A stretch of 62,759 nucleotides of DNA, the filler included, from Collodictyon triciliatum (lineage: Eukaryota), in NCBI GenBank assembly GCA_043381765.1. It is 10 parts of 10 records of this genome, joined end to end, with 100 filler letters (N's around TTAATTAATTAA, not from the genome) between each part and the next. Parts side by side here need not be neighbours in the genome. Positions count along the whole stretch, not along the records: positions 27,195 to 33,886 come from JBHJMP010004306.1; 9 more parts are not named here. The stretch is one strand, 5' to 3'. Numbering within the stretch: position 1 is the first letter of the stretch; every line of letters starts with the position of its first letter. The notes under the pieces are model-generated. The model saw nothing but the letters and a program-made list of their open reading frames with translations. It did not search any database and was not told the DNA's origin. Below, piece by piece: positions 6,705 to 35,931 of the stretch. The position numbers and the translations under genes are program-made.

Positions 6705-6804
6705 NNNNNNNNNNNNNNNNNNNNNNNNNNNNNNNNNNNNNNNNNNNNTTAATTAATTAANNNNNNNNNNNNNNNNNNNNNNNNNNNNNNNNNNNNNNNN
6801 NNNN
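6705..6804. other. Artificial contig linker N44-TTAATTAATTAA-N44 (also 13505-13604, 20301-20400, 27095-27194, 33887-33986, 39563-39662, 46356-46455, 53141-53240, 59924-60023)
   Basis: An identical 100-nt spacer with stops in all six frames recurs about every 6.7 kb, usually next to simple repeats where short-read contigs break. Confidence 0.97.
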
Positions 6805-13346: not shown

Positions 13347-13604
13347 CTGGAGAGTAAGGCTGATTAGTGGGGATACAAATGGCATGCTTATGGCCTTGAG
13401 AAAACAAAAAAGAAAAAAGAAAAGAAAAAAGAAAAGAAAAAAGAAAAGAAAAAAGAAAAGAAAAAAGAAAAGAAAAAAGAAAAGAAAAAAGAAAAGAAAA
13501 AAGANNNNNNNNNNNNNNNNNNNNNNNNNNNNNNNNNNNNNNNNNNNNTTAATTAATTAANNNNNNNNNNNNNNNNNNNNNNNNNNNNNNNNNNNNNNNN
13601 NNNN

Positions 13605-13834: not shown

Positions 13835-16800
13835 ATGTCACTCGCCTCAGAGCACAACACCACCTCGGAAAGTCTATCCGGTTTAGATTCGGCCTCCGTC
13901 TCGTCCGATCCCATCGATTTCCTTTCCTCGAAAATGTCTTCCAGCCAACTCAGCAGCCACGAGTCCGCCTCAAATACCCCAACTGTTGTGAGGCCTGCGC
14001 ACAAGAAGCCTGCATCAAGTAGTGAGAAATCGTCCGCCAGAACGAAGGCAAAGAGCAAAGAAAAGCCGTCGACAGAGTCTCTTGTTGCAGCACTTCGCCA
14101 AGACGACTTCGAGGCCATCCTTGACTGGATGAATCAGGCGATTTCTACCAGCACAGTCAAGGATCTGCGCGGCATTCTGAGTGAGCACATGTTCATGGGC
14201 AATGGAGATCGCCTCGTCTTCTGGATAGAGCTTGCCGTGTACTTGAAGCGCGTCTCTGCAAGATATGTATTCTCAAGAACACTTGTCGACGTGTTGCAGG
14301 ATAATCACGCATACCTGGAAACTATGTTGTCACGTACCCCGTTGCATGGTTTGGTTTCTTTTATAAAACATGATATAATTCACTTTGACTTGTGGGCCTC
14401 ATTTGAAGGTTTTGTCATCGTTTAGATGAAAATGGTGATGCTTACTTGGCTCCGTTTCAGAAGGTAGATGATCATACATTACGTGCCTCAGAAAGGCGAC
14501 CGAAGATATCTCTTATAGTCTTTTTGCTGAAAAAAAAATCCCTTTTTCATTTCTTTTGTTCCAAATTTTTACTTATTTGATCTTCCTAATATTTACAACA
14601 TTTAAGGTATAGTTGTATCTCTTTTTTTTATTTTTATCCTGTTTTAGTTTGTAATTTGTTTGATATATGACCTTCTCTTCTTATTTGGAATGGTTATATA
14701 GGATATATAAAAGTTAATTGAATAGGCCTATATCATTTGCCTTTCATAGGTGGCCATCGAATCTTTAAGTGAAATGGAAACTGATGTCGTCAATTACGTC
14801 TTGAATGAATTCGATTTATCGAGACGAATGACGAGTGACCAAACTGTTAAATACGCTAAAGGCCTAGTTGAGACAAAAAGGATAAAGGTTTTGAAGCATA
14901 TGTTGTTACTTTATGTCATCTTCAATTGGTTTACCAGCTACAAGTGCTTGTGTTTCATTTAAAAATGAAAGTTTACTTTATGATAATCCAGCCTTGTAAT
15001 ATACTGTAAGTAATCACGCTATCCTAACACTGCCCCAGGAAGCAGCAGCCATAGTTGGGTTCTTTAAGATACATGACCATTTTTCTGTTGAAGAAATTCT
15101 ACAGCCTCTCATATCTGCTCGCAGGTTTGATGCAGCAGAGAAATACGTATTAAATAAAGCAAATTTGCAAAGAGAAATGGTGAGACTGGTGAACATCCAA
15201 CCTGAAGGGGGATACAAAGTAATTTTCTTATTGTCTATCCTGTTATTGATACTTATGTCTCTGCTTTTCTTTGATTTCCACCAACAAAGGATAAATGACC
15301 TATGCATTATGTAGGCTGCTGGAAAATTGATAAGGAAGTTTGGTTTGGATATAAATGAGTATCCGGATATTCAGCACCGAATGGTTCTTGGTAACATACG
15401 CTGGATTATATCCGGTGAGAAAGAAGATATTTTGGATCACTTCTTAAAGGAGAATTTGGATTACCTCGGTGAAGCTATCAAGGAATTAATCCTTAGGTTG
15501 ATATTTGATTGTCTCACTTTATATATATTAACACTTATTCCTGCACAAGAACATATATTTGCTTGATTAGATAGCATTGTGAATCAAAATTGTACAGAAA
15601 GCACTATTCTTGGGCTCTGTCCGTCGTGAAGAACTTTAATATTAACGGACAGTACGGACCAGAGAGATTGACCTTCAAGGAATTGGAAAAGTTTGCCCAG
15701 GAAGACCAAAGCCCCTTGGGCAAAGATACACTCTCGGATATAGGGAAGGTCTACATTTTTACTCGTATATGTGTATAAGTTATGTGTTTGTATTTAGATT
15801 TTTTTTCATTTTTTTCGTCTTTTATTTATCATACATTAGTTATCAAAAATCAGTTATGTGGAATCTTGAAATATTCAAGGATGGTATCTATTCCATGCAT
15901 TCATATTCAGAAAATATTAGGATGAATATCTGCAATTGGATGAGTCACAAGTTGAAGTTGTGATAGTTGATAATGAAAATGCACTGGCTTTAGCAGAGGA
16001 AAATCTATTGCAGGAGGGTGCCATCGTGGGCCTAGATGCAGGTAAACATAGCGCAGTATATAAATGCAACTTTATAAAACAAGTGAAAACTAACCCCTCT
16101 AATTACTTTATATAGAATGGAAGGCGTCATTTTACGATCATGAGGAGCATAAGGCCGCTCTTTTACAAGCATCTTTGGAAAATATCGCATTTCTATTTGA
16201 CCTTACTTATTATGCAACTCCTTCAATTCCTTTGATATCGAGGTTACTTGCTGATGAAAAGATACTCAAACTTGGTAAATATAATAAAGCCGAAGCTTTT
16301 TTTAAAAAGATACTTATGGAAATTTTACATATTTTTTTTACCCTTTATTCGGTCCAAATAAAGATATGTGCGATTGTTGTAGAATATCCATTTTTTTTAA
16401 TAAATAAATAAATAAATAAATAAAAGTAGTCGTTAATTGAAAGTAACTGTATAGGCTTTGCTTTCTCACATGATATGACCCAATTGAGACGCTCCTTTCC
16501 TAGCTCGACATTCCTTCAAGATTTAAACAACTACATCGACATCTCTGAAATGTACTACTGCACAAAGTATAGAAATAAGCCAATCGGAAAGCAGAGCCTT
16601 ATAGTAATTTTTCTTTGCATACATGTATCTGGATGAATATACTTACTTGTGCATCATACAAGACTTATTGTGATCGAATAAAGGAAAAAAAATACAAGAC
16701 TTATTGTGAAAACCACCAAACGCTCACCCCTTTCAAACCCTAGGGTATTTCACTTTCCAGTGTTGTCAGAGATGTTCTCAATATTAACCTGAGCAAAAAG

Positions 16801-17909
16801 CAACAGTGCTCCAATTGGGAAAGACGCCCTCTAACGAAAGATCAAATCCATTATGCATCCCTTGATGCTCATTGTCTAATCGATTGCTATCACGAACTTC
16901 ATAAGCGCTCTATTGTAGATACAGGGGATTTGCCGAGCAGTTCTGTGATTACAAGGTCCCCGAATCCGGATAGGTCCATGAAAAAAGATATCTCGCCTCT
17001 CAATAACGAAGAAATTGCAAAGGAAGTTTTGGCCTTGCTTGAGTCGAAAGGTGGCCGGGAAGTTCGCTTCCTCGTGGACTCCAGTATGGGTAGGCTAATG
17101 AGGCAGCTGCGTGTGTTGGGAATCGACACAGAGTCGAGTCGCACGGCTGTTCCGGGAAAGAGTCCCTTCATTCCAGAGAGGCAATACGAGCGAGAGCTTG
17201 TCATGATGGCTGCTAAGGAAGAGCGCGTGATATTAACTCGCAACCAGAAACTTGGGGAATCAAGGCATTTATACACTCACGGCTTCAATGAGGGGCTCTT
17301 TGTGCGGGGTCGTGTTCCATGTGTCATTCTTCATTTCAACTCTTCTCAAGAGCAGCTTAAGTATGTCATCGAGCTTTTTCGGATCAAGATCAACAGGGAG
17401 AAGCTCTTGTCTCGTTGCTCTAAGTGCAATGGCGACCAGTTTTTGGAGCTGGATAAGATACAAGTCACCGACCGCGTGCCAGAAAACATCCTTCTGCTTG
17501 TCGATGAATTCTGGGAGTGCGGCAAATGTCGCCAGGTTTTTTTTTTTTCTACTTTTTTTTTTTTCAGTTCTTTATGGTTAAATTTGAAGTATAAACATAT
17601 TGGAATAGTATTGTACGTCATATCACGAAAGAATCCGCGTTACGTGTGTCATCGGAGACGATGCCTGTAATGTTTTTGCTCCCTCATAATGTCGTCTAGA
17701 TATACTGGGTTGGGCCCCAATACAGTAATACCATGGATTGGTGGGGCTCGATGGCGACTTATATTGGGGATGCCACATCGGAACCTGCTGAAGAGACTCC
17801 TACACAAACGGTGACCGAGGAAGCCGGAGTGTCGACCTACTACCACCAAAAAATACACTTTACAGAGGCCGGCGAAGAAGTTGAAGTCCGTGAAACCCAT
17901 TCTGCCTAA
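13835..17909 (+). CDS. EXD3: EXD3/Mut-7/Nibbler-like 3'-5' exonuclease with C-terminal Mut7-C domain (multi-exon; start approximate)
   Basis: DEDDy motifs IVGLDA|EWK, FSHDMTQL and QCSNWERRPLTKDQIHYASLDAHCL. Mut7-C motifs RFLVDSSMGRLMRQLRVLGIDT, ERVILTRN, SRCSKCNG and FWECGKCRQ|IYWVGPQY. Stop TAA at 17907-17909. Confidence 0.88.
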
Positions 17910-19620: not shown

Positions 19621-20400
19621 GGTTGGATATGTTGTGGGAGGTATAAGGCAAATCAGGGTCTATGAACTTCAGCATTATAAAGACCCTGTTCATCCAGGTT
19701 CCCAAGCCCCTGTTGTCTTTTTATGCATAATTCACATGCGCTCATGTTATTGTAACATAACACAACCCTTCGTACCTTCAAAATAAAAAGTAACCACGCG
19801 TTGTTCGAACCCACTAGCCACGCGGTGTGTAATCATAATTAGATAAACTCAATACTCGTCCACGTGTCTCATAAAAAAAAAATATCAAAGGAAATGAATA
19901 TGGAAATAAAATCTGAACGCAGTGATTTTTTCAGATTTACTCAAGTAATCCAATTAATATCGTTTGAGTTCTTTTAGAATGAAAAATCAAGTGACCAAAC
20001 AAGAAAAATGTGTCAGGCATCGAGTAGATTCTTTTTTTTCTCCCTTGAAAGAGTCTTCCGACCTTTCCTGACACTTTATAGCATACCCTATTTTGCTTCC
20101 TGAGAAAAATAATATAAAAACGACAATAAAAAAAAACAGTATGTTTATTTTTGTTTTGTTTTTTGTTTTTATTTTTGTTTTTATTTTTGTTTTTATTTTT
20201 ATTTTTATCTTTATTTTTATCTTTATTTTTATCTTTATTTTTATCTTTATTTTTATCTTTATTTTTATCTTTATTTTTATCTTTATTTTTATCTTTATTT
20301 NNNNNNNNNNNNNNNNNNNNNNNNNNNNNNNNNNNNNNNNNNNNTTAATTAATTAANNNNNNNNNNNNNNNNNNNNNNNNNNNNNNNNNNNNNNNNNNNN

Positions 20401-27059: not shown

Positions 27060-27436
27060 TTGTTTTTTTTGTTTTTTTTGTTTTTTTGTTTTTTNNNNNN
27101 NNNNNNNNNNNNNNNNNNNNNNNNNNNNNNNNNNNNNNTTAATTAATTAANNNNNNNNNNNNNNNNNNNNNNNNNNNNNNNNNNNNNNNNNNNNAAAAAC
27201 AAAAAACAAAAAACAAAAAACAAAAAACAAAAAACAAAAAACAAAAAACAAAAAACAAAAAACAAAAAACAAAAAACAAAAAACAAAAAAAAACCTTTCG
27301 TTTCCACTACTTAGCCTTTTTATTCAGTATCACAACTCAGGCAAGAAATCCTTTCTTTTCCAAATATTTTTTCGAAACTAACATTCATTTTCACCATTTG
27401 ATGCAAGCCTCACAACGAAAACAGCCTAGCTGAGCA

Positions 27437-30400
27437 ATGGAAATCGAGTGCAACTGTCCCGGTTGTGGGGAAACCTTTGCCGATCCGCGCATTCTTCCCT
27501 GTAAGCACGTTTATTGCGTTAACTGCATCCAAAAGATGAGCAAAACGCCAGTCGATCTGCTCGACGCAAGCAAAGGGACAAAGTTGTGCTGCTTCATTTG
27601 TGAGGCTGTGTTTACACTCACGAATGGAAAACCAGATAGTCTGCCGCAGGCTGAGGAATATTTAGGCCATGTTGAGACATATAAAAATGCGGCAACGTTT
27701 GTGAGCTTCAAATGCGAAGAGCATGCAGAAAAAGAGGCAGTCAAGAGATGCCTGAGCGGATGCGGCCACATTTGCCAGGATTGTGTCTCTGCTCATGGAA
27801 CCTTGAGAATATTAAAAAGTCACCAACTTGAGTACGTCATTATCCATTTTACTTTCAATTTGCCAAATTAAAATAGGAAAAACATACCTGCAATCTGCAT
27901 GTAATTTGAATATTACATCTTTTCATTTACCTTTTCCATCTGTAAAGGGATATCGACAAAACAAGGCCTATGATTTTTGAGAGTGTCTGTTCGAAGCACG
28001 CACGACCTTTTAAAGATGTTTGTGGCAAGCTCACAGAAAACCCCTTCATGTGTGATACGTGCACTGGGAGTCACTTCAAAGAACTAGGCATTCACGAACA
28101 TGACAGCTATGAAGCTGGCACAAAGAAATTCTGTGACTCTCTCCAAGAAAACAAGATCAAAATCGTAAAAACCGGTGACTTGATCAAAGAAAGTGAAAAA
28201 AGCGTCGGGGAAAAGCGCAAAGAGGTATCCATCACAAATAATATTCGTACTTTTACAATGCAAACATGAAACCTCATTGTCTCTTTGGTAATAAATCAGA
28301 TTGAAAATTATATCTCGGAACTGAAGAAAGAAGCGTCGAGCGAGTTCGAAAAAGCAAAGAAGGCTCTTGCCGAAGAGGAAAGGCGATTCATGGAGAAGGT
28401 TCATATTTTTAAGACTGTCGATTTTATCTTTGAAATACTAGAGTGTTCCGTAATTCATTTATATAAGATTTTCCACCCTTTCTGTCTCATTTAGATTGAC
28501 CGATTTAAAAAATCCATTCTGGGGCCATATGTTGCACTCGGGGATTTCTTGGAAACGTTCAAAGTGCATCTGGCGTATTCATCAAAGTTTATTGACGAGT
28601 CTATGGTTGTGTTCACAAAAGATAAGTCACCTCTTAAGCTACCAGCTGCAAAGCGCATTTCAGACTGTGTATTGCAGAAAAGAATAGTGCAAATTCCTAA
28701 AGAAACCCAAGTTTTCTCCGAGAAAATCCCAACGTTGGTTCTTTTTCCAAAAGAATCTTCTGAAGTCGAGTCTGTGCCAATACCTCAACAACTAGGCACC
28801 TTAACTGTACACAGACCGACTGAAAAGACTCTCAATCCAAGCGCACCAGCACAGTCCATCCAACCAGCCAAATCAACACCAGTGGCCGTTCCAGTCAAAG
28901 AAACTCCAAAAGAATCTGTAACAACCGAAATGAACCGAGTGATTGACCAGATTGGAGGGTCAACAGCTGCAATCAACCAAAAGAAATCAACGGGATGCCC
29001 AGAGTATAGCGCATTGGGACAGCAGATGGACGAGCTACAAACTTTAATGCAACAGACCGAATTCAAAGAAGCGCCAAAGAAAGAGATCGGCGGCATTTTC
29101 GACAAAGTTTTCGAAGTAATCAAAAAGGTATGGTTCAATTCAAATGAATAGCTCTCCAAAATGAATGTTATGCTTTTTTTCTTACACCCTCAATTTCTTA
29201 TCAAGGACGTAAGTTTGGCATCTTTCTAAAATATTATGTGAATCAGCCCATATTTTCTAATCTTGTCAAATTATATTAGTTGGTGAGTATATTTAATACG
29301 TTAAATGCATTAAAAGAAATAAATAGTGTGACTGAATCTATATAATTTTTCTTTAAACCTTTCAGTTCTGATAACATTTTTGTTTGTATCGATTTCAGGT
29401 GACGTTTATTTTCAATTCATCGTTATTATGATTTATTTGAATTAAAAATTGAAATATAAGTACCAAATTTTCTTCGCTAAAAATTATTTATTATCGTAGA
29501 AAGTAAGTTTTTTTTTTTTACTTGAAAGAATAATTACACTTAAATCATAAGGAAAATATATATTGTTTATGTAAATTATGAATATGAGTATGAAATATGG
29601 CTTTTGAGTATTTTAACTGGCAGATAAGAAAACATCAAAATTTAACATATCGCTTAATGTTACTTATTTGTGTTTTAAATAATAGTATGTAATTTTATAT
29701 CGTTCTTGAATGATACTCTTGTATGAAAAAGACAAAAAAAAATACACTTTTTATGTTTATATATTATGGCCATGATAAAAGGATACGTGTGTTCAACAGA
29801 CACCCACAAATTCGCAATAATAAAACAGTATTTATATGATTTCTATGAATTATTTGTGTATAATGATAGGATGTAAGTTTTTATTATTTATCAATGATAC
29901 TGAATTATTAAAATGAGAAGAAGTGTACATTTGTTTATGTAACTATATGATGGATATGATTAAAGGAAATAGTTGTTCAACAGACACATACGAATTCGCC
30001 ATTATAAAACAATATTTATATGATTTCTGTTACTTATTTGTGTAAAATCATAGTCTGTAAGTTTTCTTGTTCTCGAATGACACTCTATTATGAGAATGAC
30101 AAAAAAGAAGCATACATTTGTTTTTATTAATATGTGATGGATATGATAAAAGGAAATGTGTGTCCAACAGACACATACGAATTCACAATAACACAATATT
30201 TATATGATTTCTGTGACTTGTTTGTGTAAAATCATAGTATGTAAGTTTTTATTGTTCTTGAATGATAATCTATTCTGAAAATGACAAGAAATAAGCATGC
30301 ATTTGTTAATGTATATATGTGATGACTATGATAAAAAAAATTATATCGGTGTTCAACAGACACACGCGAATTCACAATAACACAATATTTATATGATTTA

Positions 30401-33400
30401 TGTTACTTATTTATGTAAAATCATAGGCTGTAAGTTCTTTTAATTCTTGAATGATACTATAATCTGAAAATGACAAGAAATAAGCATGCATTTGTGTTTA
30501 TTCATATGTAATGGCTATGATTAAAGGAAATGTGTGTTCAACAGACGTACACGAATTCGCAATAACACAATATTTATATGATTTATGTTACTTATTTATG
30601 TAAAATCATAGGTGGTAAGTTTTTATTATTCATGAATGATACTATATTATGAGAAAAAGACAAAAAATACACTTTTTATGTAAATATATGATGACTTTGA
30701 TAAAAAAAATTATATCGGTGTTCAACAGACACACGCGAATTCACAACAAATCAATATTTGTATAACTTCTGTGACTTATTTGTGTATGAATAATAGTTCG
30801 TAATTTTTTATTATTCTTGAATGATAATCTATTATGAAAATGACAAGAAAGAAGCATATATTTGTTTATGTAAATATGGAATGAATATGATAAAAGGAAA
30901 TGTGTGTCCAACAGACATACACTTATTCGCAATAATACAATATTTATATGATTTCTGTTACTTATTTGTGTAAAATCATAGCGAGTAAGTTCTAATTACA
31001 TAGGAATGATAATCTATTGAGAATGACAAAGAAATAAGCATACATTTGTTTATGTAAATATGTGATGGCTATCATTAAAGGATATGTGCGTTCAACAGAC
31101 ACATACGAATTCACAATAACACAATATTTATATGATTTCTGTGACTTATTTGTGTAAAATCATAGTATGTAAGTTCTTATTATTCTTGAATGACAATCTA
31201 TTATGAAAATGACTAGAAATAAGCATACATTTGTTTATGTAAATATGTGATGGCTATGATTAAAGGAAATGTGTGTTCAATAGACACAAACGAATTCACA
31301 AAAAACAATATTTATATGATTTATTTGACTTATTTGTGTAAAATCATAGTCTGTAAGTTCTTATTGTTCTTGAATGATTATCTATTGTGAAAATGACAAG
31401 AAGAAAGCATATATTTGTTTATGTATATACGTAATGGATACGATAAAAGGATATGTGCGTTCAACAGACACATACGAATTAACAATAATACAATATTTAT
31501 ATGATTTCTGCTACTCATTTGGGTATAATCATAGGGAGTAAGTTTTTATTGTTCTTGAATGATAATCTATTCTGAAAATGACAAAGAAATAAGCATACAT
31601 TTGTTAATGTAAATATATGATGACTTTGATAAAAAAAAATTATATCGGTGTTCAACAGACACACGCGAATTCACAACAAATCAATATTTGTATAACTTCT
31701 GTGACTTATTTGTGTATAATCATAGGCTGTAAGTTCTTTTAATTCTTGAATGATACTATTTTCTAAAAATGACAAGAAATAAGCATACATTTGTTTATGT
31801 ATACATGTGATGACTATGATAAAAGGAAATGTGTGTTCAATAGACACAAACGAATTCACAAAAAACAATATTTATATGATTTATTTGACTTATTTGTGTA
31901 AAATCATAGCCTGTAAGTTTTTACTATTCTTGAATGACAATCTATTATGAGAATGACAAGAAATAAGCATACAATTGTTTATGTAAATATGTGATGACCA
32001 TGATAAAAGGATATGTGTGTTCAACAGACACATACGAATTAACAATAATACAATATTCATATGATTTTTTTACTTATTTGTGTGTAATCATAGAGAGTGA
32101 GCTTTTACTGTTCTTGAATGATACTGTATTCTGAGAGTGACAAGAAATAAGCATGCATTTGTTTATGTAAATATGTGATGGATATGATAAAAGGAAATGT
32201 GTCTTCAACAGACACACACGAATTCACAATAACACAATATTTATATGATTTCTGTTACTTATTTGTGTAAAATCATAGTCTGTAAGTTTTTATTGTTCTT
32301 GAATCATACTGTATTATGAAAATTACAAGAAATAAGCATATATTTGTTTTTATAAATTTGTGGTGGCTATGATAAAAGGATATGTGTGTTCAACAGACAC
32401 ACGAATTCGCAATGATACAATATTCATATGATTTCTGTTACTTATATGTGTAAAATCATAGTCTGTAAGTTTTTATTGTTCTTGAATCATACTGTATTAT
32501 GAAAATTACAAGAAATAAGCATATATTTGTTCATGTAAATATGTGATGGCTATGATTAAAGGAAATGTGTTCAACAGACACATACGAATTCACAATAACA
32601 CAATATTTATATGATTTCTGTTACTTCTTTGTGTATAATCATAGGGAGTGAGTTTTTACTATGTTTGAAGGTTACATGGTGTGGTATATTTTTTCAAGGA
32701 ATTGGAGCTCACCAGTTATGAATTGAAACCGCGAATATCTGGTTGATTTATATGATAGTTAAAATACGATTATATTTTTATTCCAATCTCAATCCAAGTT
32801 TGTAAGTTTTTTCTGCAAATGTCACAATCATACAATTTCATGCATTTTAATTTCGTTCAAGAGCTGATATTAATTTTTGTTTAATCTTATCCTGGATGGC
32901 TATTTCAGAGTGTGAGTTTGAAGTCAATATAGATTTCATAAACACAATAGTTAGAAGTATGTTTAATTCTCAACCAATTAAGAAAATTAAAAATTCAAAC
33001 ATCATTTACGCAGAAACCAGCGGATGTAATTTGGCAATATAAATTTGGAAGACGTATATTGATATTATATTATTCACCTTACTAAACACATATTCATACT
33101 TAGCTGGTAACTAAAAGAGAAATGATTTTTATCATTCATAATTTTCAAACTATATCAGCTGAATTATGTTAAATTAATTATAGGATATGGTAAGTCAGAT
33201 TCTATATCGTTTGTTTACCCCAAAAGAACAAATCGTATTTTAAATTAATTTTCATTTTCAATCTTCGATAAAATTTTAGAATATCGTGAGTTTTCAACAC
33301 TGATTGTATTTAATATTATCTCTAAAAAACAAGTTTTGATTGTTTATTTACAAATTTCACGTATGATTATGATTTTTTAATCAGAATGTAAAAATTCAAT

Positions 33401-33847
33401 TTTATTAGAATCTTATTTCAAAACATCAGTAACCATATTCTTAATTCTAATTTTAATCACTAAATTATAAAGGAAGTATGATTGTTCAATAATTTGATTC
33501 ATAATTGAAAATACCTGTTTGCTTAATCAACCATTTGTGAAAAGGGAGTAATTCTTTTGATATTTTGAATATTATTCAATAAAATGAAAAATAATATTAT
33601 ATGCATTTTATTTATCTTAAAATCAGGATGTAAGATAACAGAATCGAAAAGAATATTTATTTTGTAGAACTGTTTATATTAACATTAAATAATTCACCAA
33701 CAGAAAGTAATTTGTCAATAGATAGAAAATTGATAGAAATTCTTTCTACTCACACATTTTTGTAAGCTGGCTGTAAGAATGATGGATTGAAATCAAACAC
33801 AAATAAAAATCCATAATATTAAGCACTTCTTTCTCTAGCTTCAGCTG
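27437..33847 (+). CDS. TRIM-like E3 ligase: C3HC4 RING, B-box(es), coiled coil, linker, then a C-terminal domain encoded by ~33 micro-exons (3' end truncated at contig end)
   Basis: RING CPGC...LPCKHVYCVNC...CFIC; B-box CEEHAEKEAVKRCLSGCGHICQDCVSAH; second B-box-like CSKH...CDTC; coiled coil. Ordinary introns at 27832-27947, ~28225-28299 and ~28399-28494. The phase-0 donor AAG|GTATGG at 29127/29128 leads into the micro-exon chain. Confidence 0.85.
29206..33847 (+). CDS. Chain of ~33 micro-exons (mostly 3 nt = one codon)
   Basis: Each is AG|exon|GT. Start positions: 29206 GAC, 29280 TTG, 29500 AAA, 29686 TAT, 29870 GAT, 30054 TCT, 30238 TAT, 30427 GCT, 30612 GTG, 30797 TTC, 30982 CGA, 31166 TAT, 31350 TCT, 31535 GGA, 31726 GCT, 31910 CCT, 32094 AGA, 32279 TCT, 32462 TCT, 32645 GGA, 32799 TTT, 32909 AGT, 33014 AAACCAGCGGAT, 33104 CTG, 33184 GATATG, 33280 AATATC, 33385 AAT, 33473 GAA, 33545 GGA, 33627 GAT, 33704 AAA, 33767 CTGGCT, 33845 CTG (or 33839 CTTCAGCTG). 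All lengths are multiples of 3 and none contains a stop. Confidence 0.82.
29503..32647 (+). repeat. Tandem array of 17 homologous 180-188-nt introns (unit ~184 bp including the 3-nt exon)
   Basis: Recurring unit GTAAGTT...TTCTTGAATGA...GTTCAACAGACAC...GAATTC...TATATGATTT...ACTTATTTGTGTAAAATCATAG. The first copy (29503-29685) is the most diverged. Confidence 0.95.
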
Positions 33848-34249
33848 GTAAAATGGATAATAATAAAATCAAAAATTTCAGTACAGNNNNNNNNNNNNNN
33901 NNNNNNNNNNNNNNNNNNNNNNNNNNNNNNTTAATTAATTAANNNNNNNNNNNNNNNNNNNNNNNNNNNNNNNNNNNNNNNNNNNNTCTCTTTTCTTCTC
34001 TTCTCTTCTCTTCTCTTCTCTTCTCTTCTCTTCTCTTCTCTTCTCTTCTCTTCTCTTCTCTTCTCTTCTCTTCTCTTCTCTTCTCCTGCTTTTTTTTTAA
34101 ATAAATTCTATCGCTCTTTTATTAGCAGTCTTTTTGAGTGAGGCTGGAGGGTTGTCTCGCATCGTCTTTTTAATCGAAAAGTGGATGTGATAAGCTAGAG
34201 GCTGAACTAGACTCCTTAATTTTGAATTCTATCCCGTTGTATCTCATAG

Positions 34250-35851
34250 GAAAGTTGAATGGGCCAGAGAGCGGGCGAAACAACATGGATACAAAGCATA
34301 CATCGACATCTTTGAGTTTGTGCTATGCGGAAAGACCGCATTCCCCTCATATGTCTATTACCGTGATGCATACATTTACATATGCATAATATCTTTCGTC
34401 ATTAAAATAAAAAAGCGGTGTTGTCTTTTAGGAAATACTTTATCCCACCTGACCCAAATAAAAGGTCTGCAACTCCGAACACATCCTTTCTTGGTAATTT
34501 ATTGAAAGATACTGTAAGTTATAATAGATATCAGATGGAGAAACAAAATGAGGAGGCAGAGAGAACAGAACGGTTCGATGTTTTTCATCATCAATATGCC
34601 AGATTATGCTTTATTTTTTTTTTGTTAAAATTGATAGAAACAAAAAAAATTACTACAGGGAATGTTTTCGAAAACTTAAGCAGCTTGAAGATATGATGAG
34701 GTTTTTTCTTTTTTGAGAATAAAAAAGATAGAGAGAGAAATTCGAAACACATAGTTTAAAATCTTTGGCGATATATTCAGTTTTTTTACCGTGTTTTAAT
34801 TTTCTTCGTATCCTTAACATTATCTGTTTTTATTGGTTTTATATCTCTCTTTAAAAAAATTGATTTATATCCCTTTCTTTTTACGCAAATTTTCTCCTTT
34901 ATTCGATTCTTTTTACGTGTATTCACCACTTCTTACTCTTCTATTCACATTCACAACCCATATTATTATTCTCCCTAATCGTCCAACTACATCACGAAAC
35001 CATTAACATACAGAATGAACCGCCGTTTAATGAATCCGACTCCTCAGCATCGCCATGAATACAGGAGTGAAGGAGCGTCAAATGCACCATCTAGATGGGA
35101 ACTTAAGCGCAGCCCATCTCCCAGCAGCCAAAAAAAAGTGGACAAGGCCACACTCAAGAAAAAAGTTAGCGCATCTCCACCAAGAAAAGCAAGGGAAGTA
35201 TTCAAGTCAAGACCGCAGGACAAGTCAGATACCCATTCGCATTCCACAAACAGCTCATCAGATGGCGCAAGCACACCATCCTCAGATTCCTGCTCTGATT
35301 CTGCTGATAGTGATTTTGGGCGAGGAGATTTTATCGGCCCGAGCGCACCTACACAACACAACGAGATGGGCACGATTCAACAGAGGGTGATTGGACCCGA
35401 ATGCAAACCAGGCGAGATGCAATCAAGGCAGAGAGGTGAATCAAAGAAAGAATTTACTAGACCCGTCATCGCAAAGGTAGTCAAAGGCCGCGGGATGGTT
35501 GGCAGGTCTCGGATGGATGGGTACTTTGAAGATTTGGACGAGGTTATGGACGAAAATCACCCCCGACGAATTGAAATGGGTCGCAAACTACTGCTTGCCT
35601 ACCAGACGCCAAAGAAAGAGCGCCAAGACAGAAAGGAAGAAGAACAAGTCCACAAGAAAAAGAAAAATGGCTCCAGCGAAGAGGGCGAATGCCCGTCAGA
35701 GGACTCAGAGGAAAGGAGAAAGCGGCGTAAGAAAAGGAAGGAAGAAAAGAAGCTTAAGAAAAAGATAAAGAAAGAGCACAAAAGGGAGAAGCGCAGACTC
35801 AAAAAACTGAAGGAGAAAGAGTCCAAGGAAGACGGAATTAGTTCGGAGTAA
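34250..35851 (+). CDS. Conserved uncharacterised eukaryotic protein with basic/acidic C-terminus (spliced; 5' end uncertain)
   Basis: Exons read KVEWARERAKQHGYKAYIDIF, KYFIPPDPNKRSATPNTSFLGNLLKDTVSYN and ORF 35015-35851 with KGRGMVGRSRMDGYF and a Lys-rich tail. They resemble PNxRFL and RGRGxxGSRMD motifs I recall from uncharacterised plant/fungal proteins (not verified). Confidence 0.55.
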
Positions 35852-35931
35852 CCCAGTTTTCAGTGGGAGGGCAGAAATATGGTTACCAGCAAAAGCGACT
35901 CTCTTCTTTTCATCTTTACTAAAAAAAGCTT

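Follow-up and report, generated by a model that had tools for sequence, protein, structure and literature searches.

The locus described here raises the question of whether a tandem repeat with the outward form of a satellite can be a row of introns separated by exons of a single codon. It lies in a 62,759-nucleotide (nt) window of Collodictyon triciliatum DNA (assembly GCA_043381765.1; ten parts of ten records joined by filler), in contig JBHJMP010004306.1 (27195-33886), where the four ordinary exons of a RING-finger gene are followed by a tandem array at 29658-32669 with a period of 184, 16.3 copies, 81% matches and a higher-order period of 369 (Tandem Repeats Finder). The initial annotation took this satellite for a row of homogenised introns with 3-nt exons between them. 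Splice-site conservation, the sites flanking the array and RNA of related organisms support this description, and we infer that the array codons themselves are included in the message.

We consider it probable that the one-codon exons of the array are genuine and that a unit of one exon and its intron was multiplied by tandem duplication. The assignment of the variable triplet as a 3-nt exon is supported because splice sites are conserved next to a hypervariable triplet, because AG-NNN-GTRA sites are in strand-specific excess in the unique sequence on both sides, because neighbouring micro-exons, one of them of 3 nt, are joined in RNA contigs of relatives, and because the match of one relative's contig ends at the exon 4 donor and is taken up again exactly where a repeat intron begins.

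Anatomy of the array

The core of the array (29686-32647, on the plus strand like the exons described below) was delimited by regular expression and alignment and holds 17 three-base exons and 16 introns of 180-188 nt. The exons start at 29686, 29870, 30054, 30238, 30427, 30612, 30797, 30982, 31166, 31350, 31535, 31726, 31910, 32094, 32279, 32462 and 32645. The regular expression returned exactly the 17 ATAG-NNN-GT sites that the initial annotation had claimed between 29686 and 32645, with the same distribution of donors (GTAAGT in 13 sites, GTAATT in two and GTGAGY in two). The ten triplet values without length change were recovered as well, all of them 3 nt long, and the seven diagnostic strings that had been quoted as shared among non-adjacent units are all present exactly in the places given for them.

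Read in order, the predicted residues are Tyr, Asp, Ser, Tyr, Ala, Val, Phe, Arg, Tyr, Ser, Gly, Ala, Pro, Arg, Ser, Ser and Gly. Tyr, Ser, Gly and Arg make up 11 of the 17, a composition by which the encoded segment may resemble disordered low-complexity segments. None of the 17 array triplets is a stop codon, nor is any of the five one-codon sites in unique sequence.

The triplet had been expected to be hypervariable between an invariant AG and an invariant GT, and a per-column variability check bears this out: in the alignment of units 2-16 it is the most variable of the 195 three-column windows. Pairwise differences in the exon columns are 0.695, 0.733 and 0.543 (mean 0.657), against an average of 0.184 in the other columns, while the four columns preceding the triplet (ATAG) and the two following it (GT) are invariant. 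Overall, 68 of the 197 columns are invariant; if columns are independent, the chance that these six are all invariant is therefore about 0.002.

On its left side the array is bordered by a diverged edge copy of the repeat intron (29503-29685), which is 71% like intron 9 (130/183 matches, z-score of 7.3 against shuffles). Six other flanking introns tested are unrelated to the repeat intron (z-scores of 0.5 to 2.7).

Predicted micro-exon chain around the array

The array is the middle of a longer chain of exon candidates of 3-12 bases, which runs from the donor of exon 4 to the contig end. All flanking candidates, like the 17 array sites, have the AG acceptor and GT donor of U2-type introns. The reading frame is kept throughout: the end of exon 4 is in phase 0, each length is divisible by three, and stops are absent from all 22 one-codon sites. 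The array is flanked by 1797 nt of unique tail sequence with 11 AG-NNN-GTRA sites on the plus strand and one on the minus strand, where 0.64 would be expected from the rate elsewhere in the window (56 kb; Poisson probability 1e-10).

Between the exon 4 donor and the array there are exactly three AG-NNN-GT sites with GTRAGT donors. Two of them are predicted as exons solely from their splice-site patterns in unique sequence, namely 29206-29208 (Asp, AG-NNN-GTAAGT) and 29280-29282 (Leu, AG-NNN-GTGAGT); the third, 29500-29502 (Lys, AG-NNN-GTAAGT), stands immediately before the diverged first repeat intron. The 217-nt predicted intron 29283-29499 also contains, at 29390-29402, an acceptor abutting a donor-like GTGACG (TTTCAG followed by GT), which resembles a zero-length ratchet site.

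Downstream of the array, two one-codon sites are followed by candidates of 12, 3, 6, 6, 3 and 3 nt and by further ones up to the contig end. The first of the one-codon sites is a predicted exon in unique sequence at 32799-32801 (Phe, AG-NNN-GTAAGT), whose flanking introns are unspliced in contigs of the related organisms considered below. The second is the Ser exon 32909-32911.

Splicing in related organisms

Transcript evidence was drawn from X1, X2 and X3, the only three public sequencing runs that hold 5-8% of the words of 27400-35900. X1 and X2 stem from related organisms, about 96% identical; both carry GT..AG joints and are taken to be RNA. One run with the host gene at about 99% identity is a freshwater metatranscriptome, which points to a freshwater eukaryote as the source. 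Coverage has gaps at 29211-30106 (X1 and X2), at 33019-33466 (X1) and beyond 29210 (X3), and these gaps carry no proof.

Behind the array, the donor of the Ser exon is used in the RNA of relatives, where X1 and X2 contig matches end at 32911. Contigs of X1 link 32911 to 33545 via 33 letters that follow the order of the predicted 12-, 3-, 6-, 6-, 3- and 3-nt exons. These letters were assembled from the overlap between the continuation past 32911 and the letters before 33545 in another contig. They equal the predicted exons in 26 of 33 positions, including 19 of the 21 in the first stretch, which spans three genomic pieces with the 3-nt exon at 33104 among them. Since the first 21 letters cross this exon (33104-33106), three-base exons are really spliced in this gene.

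The 12-nt exon 33014-33025 is joined in RNA, with 11/12 letters equal to the X1 loose end behind 32911. The 3-nt exon 33104-33106 (Leu, CTG) agrees in 3/3 letters, and two overlapping X1 loose ends place it after the 12-nt and before the 6-nt exon. The 6-nt exons 33184-33189 (5/6 letters) and 33280-33285 (4/6 letters) are likewise joined in the relative's RNA. The next two 3-nt exons, 33385-33387 (1/3 letters equal to X1) and 33473-33475 (2/3 letters), correspond to the only two AG-NNN-GT sites in 33286-33544 and were placed by their order. An unspliced X2 contig has at the former an intron end, three letters and then the intron beginning at 33388. With this order-based placement, the window, the spliced X1 contig and the unspliced X2 contig appear to have three different codons at 33385-33387.

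In X1 record 6 the spliced chain is joined to 33545 and then continues unspliced to 33884 and for 214 letters more. The segment 33545-33886 may thus be either the last exon, with a stop after eight codons, or a 3-nt exon (33545-33547) followed by further micro-exon candidates of 3, 3, 6 and 9 nt at 33627-33629, 33704-33706, 33767-33772 and 33839-33847. The contig stops just past an acceptor-like TTTCAG, and the host gene may continue in another contig.

The array itself is reached by X1 record 4, which matches exon 4 to 29128, continues with 70 unplaced letters and resumes at 31169, the first base of a repeat intron. From there it runs through the repeat intron, the triplet and part of the next intron. 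The match is not continued into the intron at 29128, although non-coding parts match at 96%, and it re-enters the repeat exactly at an exon-intron border; both observations speak against simple unspliced RNA. The record fits a partly spliced RNA with about 23 joined codons. Among the 13 joints and the 21 of 55 pieces listed, no joint connects exon 4 directly with the region behind the array, in contigs that drop rare forms.

Exchange between units and change of the codons

The initial annotation had described the units as mosaics, and in this assembly the mosaics are real: in a PHI-like recombination test, neighbouring sites prove more compatible than permuted ones (p = 0.0004). The four-gamete test fails for 312 of 780 informative site pairs. 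Introns 9 and 12 have identical 3' halves and 5' halves nearest to other units, and intron 11 combines a 5' half nearest to intron 4 with a 3' half nearest to intron 6. Recombination between units is thus supported; short-read misassembly could produce the same picture. The head-to-tail arrangement, the diverged edge copy and the exchange between units are those of a tandem repeat under concerted evolution. Unit number, unit order and mosaics depend on a short-read-type assembly of the repeat, and the existence of tandem units is shown independently by multi-unit RNA contigs of a related organism.

Codons and introns follow different courses. Among the array exons, eight pairs are embedded in flanks that agree to 90% or more on either side, and the codon differs in six of them, in one case at all three letters. 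Whether two exons share a codon does not depend on how similar their flanks are (p = 0.28). When the window is compared with X1, 7 of 33 letters differ in the six unique micro-exons and 54 of 1447 in the rest of the alignment (Fisher p = 0.00026), and all six codon changes alter the amino acid. Diversifying selection on the codons fits these data, and so does a residue kept at each position while conversion homogenises the introns only. The comparison with X1 favours fast codon change.

Proposed origin and expression of the tail

The array would be part of a real spliceosomal micro-exon chain encoding the region after the putatively coiled middle of a RING/B-box-like protein. The predicted path of the frame leads from the 468 codons of the ordinary exons through three one-codon exons, the 17 repeat exons and two one-codon exons to the exons of 12, 3, 6, 6, 3 and 3 nt. 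The repeat was presumably born by tandem duplication of one codon together with its 181-nt intron. Unequal crossing-over and gene conversion would then have kept the introns alike, and the edge copy would have drifted to its present 71%. Compared with the sequence around it, the codon appears to change more quickly from unit to unit and, in the unique micro-exons, also from one related organism to another. With exon lengths that are all divisible by three, the protein would change by whole residues whenever a unit is gained, lost or skipped.

Each intron appears to carry a strong GTRAGT donor, a conserved ACTTAT stretch about 20 nt before the acceptor, which may hold the branch site, and an ATAG acceptor. 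Since the donor, the ACTTAT stretch and the acceptor belong to each intron, recognition would proceed by intron definition. With only 3 nt between the 3' splice site of one intron and the 5' splice site of the next, adjacent introns would have to be removed in succession, and such stepwise removal would explain the abundance of partly spliced RNAs. The array codons would in the end be present in the mature messenger RNA (mRNA), the tail would be translated, and its codons may be under selection.

A number of points weigh against genuine one-codon exons in the array. The 70 letters of X1 record 4, or 71 given the ambiguous G at 29128, are not a multiple of three, unlike a pure chain of codon exons. 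Array units are found unspliced in the RNA contigs of relatives, including one 736-nt contig with about four units, and therefore the array introns are often retained. The stretch 32588-32911, which contains two predicted introns, is present unspliced in these contigs too. A mature mRNA with all 17 codons is absent from the relatives' contigs, which drop rare forms. All RNA evidence for the tail comes from the relatives and none from the organism of the window, and the RNA nature of X1 and X2 is itself a guess, despite their GT..AG joints. X1 could also be a paralogue, which affects the inference of fast codon change. Variability is not highest at the third codon position (0.543, with 0.695 and 0.733 at the other two), the last two downstream micro-exons are placed by order alone, and the predicted tail has no recognisable domain or relative.

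Alternative explanations

The main rival to one-codon exons is a transcribed minisatellite that is mostly left unspliced. Copies of a codon plus its intron would have been amplified and would now form part of a retained intron or of the 3' untranslated region, with the protein ending shortly past the last codon exon still in use. Such an origin accounts for the several consecutive unspliced units in the RNA contigs of relatives, for the unspliced 32588-32911 being joined to correctly spliced downstream micro-exons, and for the stop codon that is met six codons after reading from any triplet into the intron. We nevertheless consider it unlikely. Splice sites out of use would be expected to decay like the rest of the unit, but AG and GT are unchanged in each of the 17 units, right beside the most variable columns, and no triplet is a stop. 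The approximately 70 letters between exon 4 and the repeat intron in X1 are far beyond what the three unique codon exons could yield.

If the one-codon exons are genuine, they might form a cassette array with one residue per exon, in which single-codon exons under diversifying selection make up the recognition end of a protein like a RING E3 ligase. The tail would then vary one amino acid at a time, through unequal exchange between homogenised introns, through combinatorial skipping of exons or through both, so that it would differ between lineages and possibly between transcripts: the strategy of micro-exon genes carried to its physical limit in a free-living protist. We offer this as a tentative and rather doubtful extension.

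The diversity generator inferred in the initial annotation, taken as a selected function, is less likely still. Here recombination between identical introns would add, delete and swap single codons, and individuals or cells would differ in the tail. The mosaic units, with four-gamete failures carrying a spatial signal (p = 0.0004), the differing codons between nearly identical flanks, and the micro-exon codons that differ between relatives far more than other sequence are all to be expected from such a generator. Function-free tandem repeats, though, all show mosaics of this kind, and stretches identical over about 90 nt invite chimeric paths in short-read assembly. That codon sharing is not tied to flank similarity (p = 0.28) does not suit a generator either, and ten codon values need point changes rather than shuffling.

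The initial annotation had offered repeated insertion of an Introner-like element as the alternative to shuffling. It would require seventeen insertions of one mobile intron between the codons of a once continuous exon, and we regard it as very improbable, even though the units are alike and each is a complete intron with its own splice sites. The remaining 56 kb of the window contain no other copy (best outside match, 38 nt at 79%). Terminal inverted repeats that would pair the ends of the unit are absent, and so is a target-site duplication, since the triplets to its left and right differ. To either side of the array the pattern of one codon per exon goes on with introns unrelated to the repeat. 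The head-to-tail period, the decayed edge copy and the higher-order period of 369 all point to tandem duplication. In metagenome contigs the exon-site pattern of the unit was met at six loci, with one match each; all were chance matches, with relatedness over only 24-39 nt.

Least probable of all is a small-RNA host gene whose introns would be the product (small nucleolar RNA, snoRNA, or microRNA) and whose exons would be filler: tandemly repeated, well-kept introns with tiny exons do resemble snoRNA-bearing hosts, but no Rfam family was found at E up to 1 on either strand of 29100-33886, the intron folds no better than its shuffles (-22.9 against a mean of -27.8 kcal/mol, z-score of +1.49), and the stop-avoiding variable triplet and the exon lengths in multiples of three would be left unexplained. 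Mutually exclusive choice of one codon, as in Dscam, was set aside, the 70 letters arguing against it, and recursive splicing does not fit because three bases would remain in the RNA.

Comparison with known systems

Single spliceosomal micro-exons of 3 nt are described for Drosophila homothorax (micro-Ex8; PMC7392893) and for human RPS24 (PMC12207440). As far as these reports present them, they share with the array sites the three-base exon placed in frame between a normal AG acceptor and a normal GT donor; they are single, often alternative, and lie between long unrelated introns. In Collodictyon, about 22 one-codon exons would follow one another, 17 of which lie within a tandem repeat formed by their own introns, unlike any such isolated micro-exon.

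The micro-exon genes (MEGs) of schistosomes have exons of up to 36 bp and a duplicated micro-exon of 9 bp (PMC8293314, citing DeMarco et al., 2010). They are presented there as restricted to schistosomes and as coding for secreted proteins with a signal peptide, most of the coding sequence being made of micro-exons (PMC8293314). According to the same account, the likeness lies in very short symmetric exons that can be lost in frame, in signs of fast protein evolution and in micro-exon duplication. The Collodictyon gene is not composed mainly of short symmetric exons, since 468 codons are in four ordinary exons and only the tail is micro-exonic. A secreted or surface protein with a signal peptide is not indicated, the predicted protein starting directly with the RING finger (residues 7-57). 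It further differs from MEGs in having one-codon exons with homogenised introns, and no sequence relation was seen.

Tandem exon duplication with concerted evolution offers the head-to-tail units, the higher-order period, the mosaics and the decayed edge copy. What differs here is that the duplicated exon is one codon and that it is conserved least within the unit, where an exon would be conserved best. Algae and fungi have Introner-like elements, families of near-identical introns that come with their own splice sites and are scattered across many unrelated genes; the copies described here stand in tandem within a single gene, with none elsewhere in the window. At major histocompatibility complex (MHC) class I loci, introns are homogenised by recombination while exons are kept different by selection. 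That case concerns alleles and paralogous genes with long exons, not repeat units within a gene. The array appears to belong to neither the MEG nor the Introner family and would combine the known kinds of micro-exons and tandem exon duplication. No description of a tandem array of 3-nt exons was found in open-access papers and bioRxiv.

To our knowledge, three-base exons occur only as rare single cases. If the array is what we propose, its run of about 22 codon exons, 17 of them copies of one module, would be the most fragmented coding sequence described, and it would pose the mechanical question of how the spliceosome handles splice sites 3 nt apart again and again in one transcript. The partly spliced RNAs suggest an ordered, slow splicing process that is open to study. 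The protein could grow or change by one residue per recombination event, and the locus would be a natural case of introns being homogenised while the exon between them diverges faster than any other site. Gene finders would miss a tail of this kind, and similar genes may hide in other poorly sampled eukaryotes.

The host gene

The array follows four ordinary exons that form an open frame of 468 codons and whose three introns are confirmed by spliced contigs from three public runs. Exon 1 (27437-27831) holds the start codon, the RING finger and a weak B-box-like stretch, and is joined to 27948 in X1 and X2. Exon 2 (27948-28224) is bounded by the joints 27829>27948 (X1, X2) and 28222>28298 (GT..AG; X1, X2, X3). 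Exon 3 (28300-28398) lies between the joints 28222>28298 and 28396>28493, the cut of each being set two places further right. Exon 4 (28495-29127) comprises 211 codons and ends in phase 0 at the GT donor (29128), as given by its reading frame and by the X1 record 4 match that ends at 29128; this donor is thus used in the relative. The ordinary introns (27832-27947, 28225-28299 and 28399-28494) have the weak donors GTACGT, GTATCC and GTTCAT, unlike the introns of the micro-exons, whose donors are near consensus.

The RING finger spans residues 7-57 and is recognised by two Pfam models over their cut-offs, zf-RING_UBOX (E = 3.7e-07) and zf-C3HC4 (E = 8.1e-07). The zf-B_box model scores 17.4 bits in exon 1, under its cut-off of 24.1, so that of the TRIM/RBCC hallmarks the RING finger is present, as two RING models agree, and the B-box is sub-threshold. 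Exons 2-4 have no Pfam match.

Searches with exon 4 yielded no relative from 788 candidates among longer proteins, and searches with its last 111 residues none from 8 candidates. In metagenome contigs 277 pattern matches were obtained, of which 0 were confirmed, and scores in Atlas were no higher than 0.76. Its single weak relative among 1.84 billion representatives is P0121, a 159-residue frame (E = 4.5e-06). The end of P0121 aligns with the end of exon 4 and then seems to run into intron; to judge from this alignment, the exon 4 boundary may be shared with this distant relative.

Assembly and other contigs of the window

The Collodictyon triciliatum assembly is fragmented; its contigs in the window are separate pieces about 6.7 kb long, with one of 5.6 kb, and 27195-33886 is the sole trustworthy neighbourhood for the array. 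Contigs are joined by 44 N, a 12-letter linker with stops in all frames and another 44 N at 6705-6804, 13505-13604, 20301-20400, 27095-27194 and 33887-33986, and by joins of identical build at 39563-39662, 46356-46455, 53141-53240 and 59924-60023. Many contig ends carry microsatellites, and genes on different pieces are not implied to be neighbours.

The other contigs contain a Mut7-C/3'-5' exonuclease gene and an intron-free mitochondrial carrier gene (16744-17670 and 57731-58639). The best protein database match of the carrier is 53% identical, therefore the protein collection holds no close sequenced relative of the organism; the named matches are spread across green algae, Amoebozoa and animals.

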